Source: a virus
UHGV virus genome: UHGV-2135452
DNA length: 10,619 nt
Strand: one strand, 5' to 3'
The translations under genes and the position numbers were made by a program. The notes under the pieces are model-generated. The model saw only the letters and a list, made by a program, of their open reading frames with translations. It did no database searches and was not told where the DNA came from. Below, piece by piece: positions 10,375-10,468 of this stretch. Positions within the stretch are counted from its first letter, which is position 1, and every line of letters begins with the position of its first letter.

Positions 10375-10426
10375 GGTATACGCGTTTAGGTATACATCCT
10401 ACCGTATACCTAAACGTATACCAATA
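10375..10426. repeat. Arm-type repeats (GGTATAC / GTATACC x4) between int and the att core; putative Int binding sites
   Basis: GGTATACG, GGTATACA, CCGTATACC, CGTATACC within 50 bp. The last two plus flank nearly duplicate 207..231. Confidence 0.4.
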
Positions 10427-10468
10427 ATCACTGGATTTAGCTGGATATCCTCGGACAATGGTAGACAC

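Follow-up and report, generated by a model that had tools for sequence, protein, structure and literature searches.

Putative integrase arm-type sites at the two ends of a P4-like satellite prophage inserted in the ssrA gene of Escherichia coli

Near-identical repeat blocks lie close to both ends of the virus sequence UHGV-2135452, and they raise the question of which protein reads them: the integrase, another regulator of its gene, the replication machinery, or none. The analyzed stretch (10,619 nt, here called the window) is a P4-like satellite prophage of ~10.4 kb, running from ~135 to ~10552, in the 3' end of the E. coli ssrA (tmRNA) gene, and its integration is by a tyrosine integrase of the IntA/CP4-57 clade. 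In sequence comparison positions 293-7549 are 97% identical to P4, and the P4 core genes crr, alpha (a primase-helicase of 777 aa), vis, sid, delta, and psu are present together with Rfam matches to the P4 immunity RNAs C4, c4-a1b1, and isrK. To the right of psu, a SIR2-domain gene stands in place of the P4 gop-beta-cII region. The element is placed between the ypjA-side flank and ssrA, and ypjA is found to its left in strain 2018-10-1CC. Of 5426 complete E. coli genomes, 298 carry a near-identical element (a single place covering at least 80% of the window), typically between ssrA and ypjA. The genes and ends referred to below are:

1..134, no strand assigned: chromosomal flank on the ypjA/glaH side, outside the element; in the empty site it directly adjoins the ssrA 3' end
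135..153, minus strand: distal att core, TTCAAACT CCGCCAGC CCA; imperfect element copy of the ssrA 3' end
293..592, plus strand: P4 crr, two 120-bp repeats with TGTTCACC iterons for alpha; 97% identity to the P4 crr annotation
4766..5032, minus strand: vis (P4 ORF88), AlpA-family excisionase; Pfam Phage_AlpA (E 7e-21), 98.9% identity to P4 Vis
9141..10352, minus strand: int, 403-aa tyrosine integrase of the IntA (CP4-57) clade; Pfam domains and identity to IntA
10537..10619, minus strand: 3' part of ssrA (tmRNA), clipped by the window end; Rfam RF00023, 77 bits, model positions 288-374
10538..10552, minus strand: 15-bp CCGCCAGCTCCACCA, the extreme 3' end of ssrA; same in attB and in an intact attP

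The crr repeats adjoin the att site and are not part of it. ARAGORN finds no complete tmRNA gene in the window because ssrA is truncated by the window end, while Rfam detects the fragment. The ends of the element were determined by an empty-site comparison. The query was a chimera of window positions 1-135 and 10538-10619, counted when one place covered at least 80% of it, and 2636 of the 5426 complete E. coli genomes carry this empty site, with 1-135 fused directly to 10538 onward in a single ungapped match of 217 nt at 99.1% identity. The element therefore extends from ~135 to ~10552, and its left junction lies at ~135-138, where the preliminary description had put it. The hallmark of such a satellite is evident here: the ssrA 3' end is intact at 10538, and a displaced, imperfect fragment of it is found at the far end, at 135-153.

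The repeat block had been described before with the limits 207..231 and 10402..10426. The block itself is real; those limits are 2-3 nt too wide. A 23-nt block, CGTATACCTAA(T/A)CGTATACCAAT, is located at 207-229 and at 10403-10425, the two copies differing by one mismatch, and no match to it with up to 3 mismatches was obtained in 200 dinucleotide-preserving shuffles. The repeat unit is 12 bp, and the 23-nt block is a tandem pair of such units. Exact CGTATACC occurs five times in 10.6 kb, on the plus strand at 207, 219, 10403, and 10415 and on the minus strand at 10375, in each case less than 250 nt from an element end. A one-mismatch copy, TGTATACC, follows at 10389-10396 on the minus strand. 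The further GGTATAC copies previously noted at 10375..10396 were correctly seen, and together they form an inverted version of the tandem pair. This makes six motif copies in all (206-229, 10402-10425, and 10373-10396); the motif was not found elsewhere in the 10.6-kb window, and it is unrelated to the core sequence CCGCCAGCTCCACCA. The repeats and the features around them are:

163..175, minus strand: IHF-like site AATCAAAGCAATA, one mismatch to WATCARNNNNTTR, a weak candidate; between the core and the distal arm pair
206..229, minus strand: putative distal arm pair, two 12-bp units, ATTGGTATACGA TTAGGTATACGC; repeat search
10373..10396, plus strand: putative inverted arm copies, ATTGGTATACG CG TTTAGGTATACA; between the predicted -10 and the int start codon
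10396..10401, minus strand: candidate int -10 hexamer, TAGGAT; TAnnnT conserved in the family
10402..10425, minus strand: putative proximal arm pair, two 12-bp units, ATTGGTATACGT TTAGGTATACGG; repeat search and family conservation
10431..10456, minus strand: three direct RTCCRG repeats (GTCCGAG, ATCCAG, ATCCAG), 10-11 bp apart; candidate Vis/AlpA sites
10470..10505, minus strand: Rho-independent terminator carried by the element; hairpin and T-run, conserved in all related loci

The integrase gene has a GTG start with an AAGGAG Shine-Dalgarno sequence 8 nt upstream. Its product contains an Arm-DNA-bind_3 domain (PF13356, residues 8-91, E 5e-22) followed by Phage_int_M and Phage_integrase domains; residues 8-93 match PDB entry 3JU0 and residues 8-86 match 3JTZ (the same sequence is also in 3RMP). 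It is 35% identical to P4 Int and 63% identical over 393 aa to K-12 IntA. Membership in the IntA/CP4-57 clade follows from this relationship and from the position of int downstream of the ssrA CCA, in the same orientation as in K-12, with a gap from CCA to int start of 185 nt in the window and 203 nt in K-12.

The arm sites of P4 attP were reportedly described by Pierson and Kahn in 1987. The 12-bp "attP arm sequence repeats" annotated for P4 in X51522 comprise an inverted copy at the int start and pairs at 3942-3965 and 4151-4174, around a 20-bp core at 4078-4097, with crr after the second tandem pair. The window resembles P4 in having 12-bp units, a co-oriented tandem pair flanking the core on either side, an inverted copy beside the start of int, and a core that is the 3' end of a tRNA-like gene. 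The reconstructed attPs of the two align collinearly: the distance from the end of the proximal pair to the core TGG is 112 nt in the window and 113 nt in P4, and that from the core TGG to the distal pair is 71 and 72 nt, respectively. Between the proximal pair and the core a homologous block can be followed (GGATTT ... CCTCGGA, an A-run, and GGAAG.AAG before the core). The units have an ATTGG start in common and then diverge to TATACG in the window and GGGCAT in P4, so that the arm motif is GGTATACG in the window and GGGGGCAT in P4. P4 also differs in its target, leuX instead of ssrA, and in having one inverted copy where the window has two. CP4-57 shares the ssrA target and the Int clade, and its 12-bp motif is likewise doubled, with an inverted copy upstream of intA. 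Its motif is different (TAGGCCCA in the proximal and TAGGACCA/TGGGACCA in the distal pair), its P' arm is 10 nt longer, and with 22 kb it is not a P4-type satellite.

A 10,182-bp contig (L087) with a contiguous attP of a near-identical module was recovered from IMG/VR by pattern search. Its order is distal pair, 63 nt, TTCAGACTCCGCCAGCTCCACCA, the P' sequence of the window (CTTGCTCTTCCGGATACGTCCGG..., the terminator, and the RTCCRG block), proximal pair, inverted copies, and int, with both arms ~200 bp apart around the core. This layout matches the arrangement predicted for the unintegrated form if the repeats are arm sites. The contig is not the window's own circle and ends without overlap; it could also be the junction of two like elements, which is structurally the same as an attP. 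Since CCGCCAGCTCCACCA is identical in attB and in this intact attP, strand exchange must fall inside 10538..10552.

The left end also holds the degenerate copy of the ssrA 3' core reported earlier, at 135-153. On the window strand it reads TGG GCTGGCGG AGTTTGAA, compared with TGGTGGA GCTGGCGG GAGTTGAA in the ssrA 3' end at 10538-10560; on the ssrA strand the distal junction is ...TATTCAAACTCCGCCAGC CCA / AATAATG and ssrA is ...GGTTCAACTCCCGCCAGC TCCACCA / AATAATG. The 8-bp CCGCCAGC at 138-145 is the same as in ssrA. On the P side the family sequence TTCA(G/A)ACTCC-GCCAGC differs from ssrA TTCAACTCCCGCCAGC, and the core form TTCAGACTCCGCCAGC is common to the family and to CP4-57, where the attR core continues with CCACCA without T and is annotated in K-12 as pseudogene psaA. 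These P-side differences ((G/A)ACT for ACTC) recur across many genera, in K-12 CP4-57, and in the intact attP, and they are therefore ancestral and not decay. The left core is thus the element's own P-side core joined to target sequence, and attP and attB have only the last 15 bp of ssrA in common. The sequence up to GCCAGC moves with the element into five different E. coli contexts, and the sequence downstream of it varies. What follows GCCAGC is:

L002, L068, and L087: TCCACCA
CP4-57 and many loci: CCACCA (T absent)
window and L085: CCA
L001: C
L084: T, then unrelated sequence

The absent T encodes the U of the tmRNA G.U pair. In CP4So, a P4-like integrase element of Shewanella oneidensis, ssrA was shown to lack that U after excision (PMC5148205), and ssrA is altered by one base when CP4-57 excises (PMC3105296); this integrase group is therefore known to have imperfect distal cores. 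CP4So resembles the window in its ssrA location and in an attR without the T, and differs in its host genus and its 36 kb, the window core lacking a further CCA (PMC5148205). With regard to the crossover, the P side is constant up to GCCAGC and variable beyond it, which would favor exchange 5' of the T, as do the published excision products of CP4So and CP4-57 (PMC5148205, PMC3105296). The T is missing at most tandem junctions, as would fit exchange on its 3' side or a T inside the overlap that segregates after replication.

The left core has another possible explanation, namely that it is a decayed, once-perfect ssrA 3' end, the element is immobilized, and the arm sites are relics. The window lacks the TCCA (equivalently T and one CCA) that is kept by the intact attP and by L002, a sister copy in E. 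coli; the loss is even larger in another sister copy (L001), and the SIR2 cargo gene is frameshifted in the window. Against this, the P-side differences (GACT or AACT for ACTC) are ancestral, as described above; the arm units, int, vis, and CCGCCAGC are all intact; recent mobility of the lineage is indicated by near-identical elements in no fewer than five different E. coli contexts; and CP4-57 and CP4So still excise experimentally with an attR that lacks the T (PMC5148205, PMC3105296). An immobilized element with relic arms is thus somewhat unlikely, though not a negligible reading. The extra CCA loss and the SIR2 frameshift suggest some decay of the window's own copy. The preliminary description had offered two accounts of the imperfect core, that the attP and attB cores differ or that the element is partly fixed. 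The first was largely right, given how widely the P-side differences are distributed, and the second may hold in part, for the TCCA. The "degenerate" core, then, is probably for the most part not a product of decay.

We scanned one genome per species and fetched 79 loci. They come from Escherichia, Kluyvera, Enterobacter, Klebsiella, Erwinia, Pantoea, Serratia, Yersinia, Rahnella, and other Enterobacterales, and their Ints are 71-99% identical. Most of these ssrA integrase loci are P4-like satellites. The int start lies 180-206 nt past the ssrA CCA in nearly every locus, and relative to that start most have a tandem pair near -70/-58 and an inverted copy near -30. The outer inverted copy (10373-10383 in the window) is highly conserved in the family and the inner one less so. 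Between the ssrA CCA and the proximal pair lie 114/115, 124/125, or 134/136 nt, values about one helical turn apart, which would be expected were arm-core phasing important. A distal tandem pair was visible in 20 loci, those with the far end within the fetched DNA, and it is always on the same strand. In each of the 18 loci measured, the window included, exactly 89 nt separate the first G of this pair from the end of CCAGC, and the spacer between CCAGC and the distal pair is poorly conserved in sequence.

Two types of motif, A and B, were distinguished. Among 75 classified cases (74 loci and the window), 49 carry GGTATACG, as does the window, 25 carry GGTACACG, and one is unclear; the T/C switch between the two is found in every copy of a locus. 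Of 19 classifiable loci, 17 have distal and proximal arms of one type (12 A-A and 5 B-B) and 2 are discordant (Fisher p = 0.002, a value that overstates independence since the loci are related). One of the discordant loci (L052) is a mosaic array with a truncated neighboring P' arm; the other is L079. The proximal arm of L076 is degenerate, and T and C units are mixed within one arm at three junctions (L091, L102, and L104). Because of the discordant loci and the mixed-unit arms, the two motif types may not be strictly exclusive.

The protein that follows the motif was sought by aligning integrases of type A (42) and type B (24). Perfect separation of the types is confined to seven Int positions (residues 4, 11, 13, 19, 23, 57, and 76); all of them are in or at the edge of the Arm-DNA-binding domain and none is among the other 300-odd residues. 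Identity in the Int N-domain is 0.67 between types and 0.81 and 0.88 within types, compared with 0.81 between types and 0.82 and 0.85 within types for the remainder of the protein. Some A and B elements, in contrast, have Vis proteins that are 93-98% identical and Int N-domains that share only 66-69% identity. Vis and alpha of the window are both ~99% identical to those of P4, yet P4 uses ATGCCCCC; there is no GGTATACG in P4 attP and no ATGCCCCC in the window ends. As the motif differs despite nearly identical alpha and Vis, it goes with the integrase module. Judged from these alignments, the motif appears to track only the N-terminal domain of Int and neither Vis nor alpha. Both arms, the core, and the int 5' end come together in the circular form as one block of ~600 bp, so the concordance of arm and N-domain could partly come from inheritance of this block as a unit and not from selection. 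The same change in five or six separate copies would nevertheless be hard to explain without a common reader protein.

Taken together, the CGTATACC-containing 12-bp units are very probably the attP arm-type sites of the element's own Int, in a P4-like layout that was split by integration. The motif is present on both arms, Int has an arm-binding domain (Arm-DNA-bind_3), the L087 contig shows the contiguous attP, and the motif covaries with the N-terminal domain of Int. These observations, with the P4 layout, support what the preliminary description had proposed, that the blocks are Int arm-binding sites separated by integration. The complete attP would have two co-oriented units far from int, two next to int, and one or two inverted units upstream of int; integration would have split it at the core, leaving the arms 10.2 kb apart as they are now. 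By analogy with lambda and P4, each Int protomer would place its N-terminal domain on an arm unit and its C-terminal domains on the core, and DNA bending, by IHF and in excision also by Vis, would fold the arms onto the core to form the intasome. Vis is the probable partner of Int in excision. Kirby et al. are said to have described IHF in recombination of the P4/CP4-57 type in 1994. The passage on IHF in PMC7286903 likewise reports it in P4 and CP4-57 recombination. In the window an IHF consensus scan gave only two one-mismatch matches, a result without statistical support and too weak for use.

The proximal pair coincides with a conserved promoter-like site of int. A candidate -35, TTGGTA (10419-10424), lies inside the first proximal unit, the second unit occupies the promoter spacer, and the TAGGAT hexamer would serve as the -10. 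In 68 of 70 related loci a TAnnnT hexamer follows TTGGTA at a distance of 17 nt; in 14 loci it reads TATAAT. Both window hexamers are weak: a sigma-70 promoter scan of 10300-10619 found none, with a scanner threshold of 9 of 12 compared with 8 of 12 for the window hexamers by eye, and the int promoter is proposed because of the family conservation. The overlap suggests autorepression, in which Int on the proximal pair (the -35 and the spacer) and on the inverted copies downstream of the -10 would repress int. The N-terminal part of P4 Int is reportedly sufficient for Pint repression, according to the 2006 abstract of Piazzolla. That P4 Int and Vis both repress Pint is stated in the passage of PMC7286903 that cites Piazzolla 2006. 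Further upstream, the RTCCRG block is conserved in the family, aligns with P4 attP, and resembles the same region of CP4-57. Excisionase sites are described as typically direct repeats one helical turn apart in the relevant part of PMC7498355, and we propose the RTCCRG repeats at 10431-10456 as candidate Vis sites. The terminator at 10470..10505 substitutes for the displaced native region downstream of ssrA and shields int from ssrA transcription.

The promoter overlap could also mean that the repeats are Vis/AlpA sites, or the operator of another int regulator, instead of arm sites of Int; P4 Vis is reported, in the parts of PMC2603039 and PMC7286903 that concern it, to bind the attP region and to repress Pint. 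This is very improbable given the comparisons above. The window Vis is 98.9% identical to P4 Vis and yet P4 carries another motif, elements with 93-98% identical Vis carry opposite motif types, the doubled motif is also present on the far arm, where there is no promoter, and the RTCCRG repeats, at helical spacing and common with P4, are the better Vis candidate. It is extremely improbable that the repeats are crr/alpha replication iterons or duplication leftovers without a role in recombination: the left block is only 64 nt from crr, but the second block is next to int and 10 kb from crr, alpha is ~99% identical to P4 alpha, whose iterons are TGTTCACC in a region with no GGTATACG, and the distance to the core is fixed at 89 nt (18/18 loci) whereas that to crr is 64 nt here and 117 nt in P4. 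Both readings were rejected on these grounds.

As arm-type sites of Int the repeats belong to a kind of feature that is already known, from P4 since 1987 and from other integrases since then, and the present set is a further case. In lambda attP the arm sites are P1, P2, and P'1-P'3, and Int is heterobivalent. The element resembles lambda in having an N-terminal arm-binding domain, arms on both sides of the core, and bending proteins that set the direction; the two are unrelated in sequence, differ in how many sites there are and how these are oriented, and have arm-binding domains from different Pfam families. Another parallel is offered by the helper-embedded PICIs, in which a doubled motif occurs once per attP arm, co-oriented and at fixed crossover distances (PMC10111431). 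The authors of that work suggest that the doubled motif binds the arm domains of an integrase tetramer (PMC10111431). The PICIs differ in integrase clade, targets (prophage late genes), motif, and distances, which are 81 and 132 bp (PMC10111431).

What goes beyond the routine is the clean covariation of a one-base motif switch with the arm-binding domain, and the frequency of mixed-type tandem arrays at ssrA. Such arrays are common in the survey (L007, L088-L090, L092, and L097-L099), and among viral contigs five tandem arrays are mixed and one is of the same type. In a metagenome scan same-type and mixed junctions were about equally frequent, and hybrid arms occurred as well; a preference for mixed-type arrays was unsupported once these junctions were added. 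GGTATACG and GGTACACG, with the seven fixed Int substitutions, might represent two orthogonal arm specificities within one ssrA integrase clade, which would allow tandem satellites at one attB to form intasomes and excise independently; we consider this speculative and, on balance, quite unlikely. Structures of arm-binding domains of this kind have been solved (3JU0 and 3JTZ), to our knowledge none of them in complex with DNA. The T/C switch and the seven N-domain residues make a small testable system for how P4-family arm-binding domains read DNA. With the exact ends and att anatomy fixed for these widespread, P4-like, defense-carrying ssrA satellites, automatic delimitation of such islands should also be helped. 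For the host, depending on the point of strand exchange, excision could leave a tmRNA gene without its G.U identity pair, and alteration of the tmRNA gene by excision has been shown experimentally for CP4So and CP4-57 (PMC5148205, PMC3105296).

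Among the 79 related ssrA integrase loci, the spacing between the ssrA CCA and the proximal arm pair falls into discrete classes of 114/115, 124/125 or 134/136 nt, which differ by about one helical turn, and the ssrA-int region of these loci carries the ssrA trailer/terminator in two alternative versions. Further ssrA integrases also have doubled 12-bp motifs in identical layout, each with its own version, as seen when we compared positions 1080-1150 and 22880-22925 of comparison locus L086 and the left neighbours of L002, L085 and L084. The arm motif of CP4-57, the ssrA prophage of E. 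coli K-12, is TTAGGCCCATTGATAGGCCCA, with GGACCA in its distal pair; a CP4-57-like neighbour has the doubled motif TTAGGCACCTTGTTAGGCACC, and another neighbour has ATGGCACCCTGAATGGGACCC. A (T/A)(A/G)GG start is common to many of these motifs.

Two ssrA elements in tandem are a common arrangement (locus L007, ~20340-20640; junction regions of L088-L092 and L095-L104). In this set an element with GGTATACG arms lies next to one with GGTACACG arms at about 9-10 junctions, about 6 junctions join like to like, and both unit types occur within one proximal arm in three cases (L091, L102 and L104). The majority of the junction cores are without the T (GCCAGCCCACCA). The whole locus of strain E47 (L002) is an array of three elements at ssrA:

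Element 1, adjoining ssrA: prophage with CI repressor, integrase and dCTP deaminase
Element 2, after element 1: P4-like satellite, its distal core complete (GCCAGCTCCACCA)
Element 3, adjoining glaH: CP4-57-like integrase, truncated by IS1

At 7440-7800 of L087 (IMG/VR UViG 2600255186_000010), an int module like that of the window has its attP uninterrupted, and this attP matches the 3' end of ssrA over the full 15 bp. This contig, at 10,182 bp, is of satellite size and is possibly the episomal form of a window-like satellite; no overlap was found between its two ends.

The chromosomal flank at window 8-129, which the E. coli "empty site" (window 1-135 joined to 10538-10619) also contains, is 84-86% similar to DNA of the lambdoid phages Ayreon and LLS, where the matching DNA adjoins the attP/tmRNA-pseudogene. 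Its initial bases (AATAATGAT...) are similar to the P' arm that some satellites carry. Both likenesses suggest that the "empty" site may itself contain an old remnant.

Within the satellite, the P4 hotspot holds a SIR2-domain defence gene (7756-9113, minus strand), and Rfam places three RNA features on the same strand:

8244-9113, minus strand: ORF, one piece of the SIR2 gene
7756-8169, minus strand: ORF, the other piece of the same gene
4431-4518, minus strand: C4 antisense RNA
4617-4694, minus strand: isrK
4655-4707, minus strand: c4-a1b1 target

The SIR2 gene is broken into two ORFs by a 1-nt gap, as judged against strain 2018-10-1CC, where the gene is intact and encodes 452 aa; the broken form is either a pseudogene or the product of a sequencing error. 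The C4, isrK and c4-a1b1 set is the P4 immunity RNA system, intact in this prophage. An inverted repeat (27 nt, 81% complementary, 6-nt loop) was also observed at 415-474, between the two 120-bp crr repeats.
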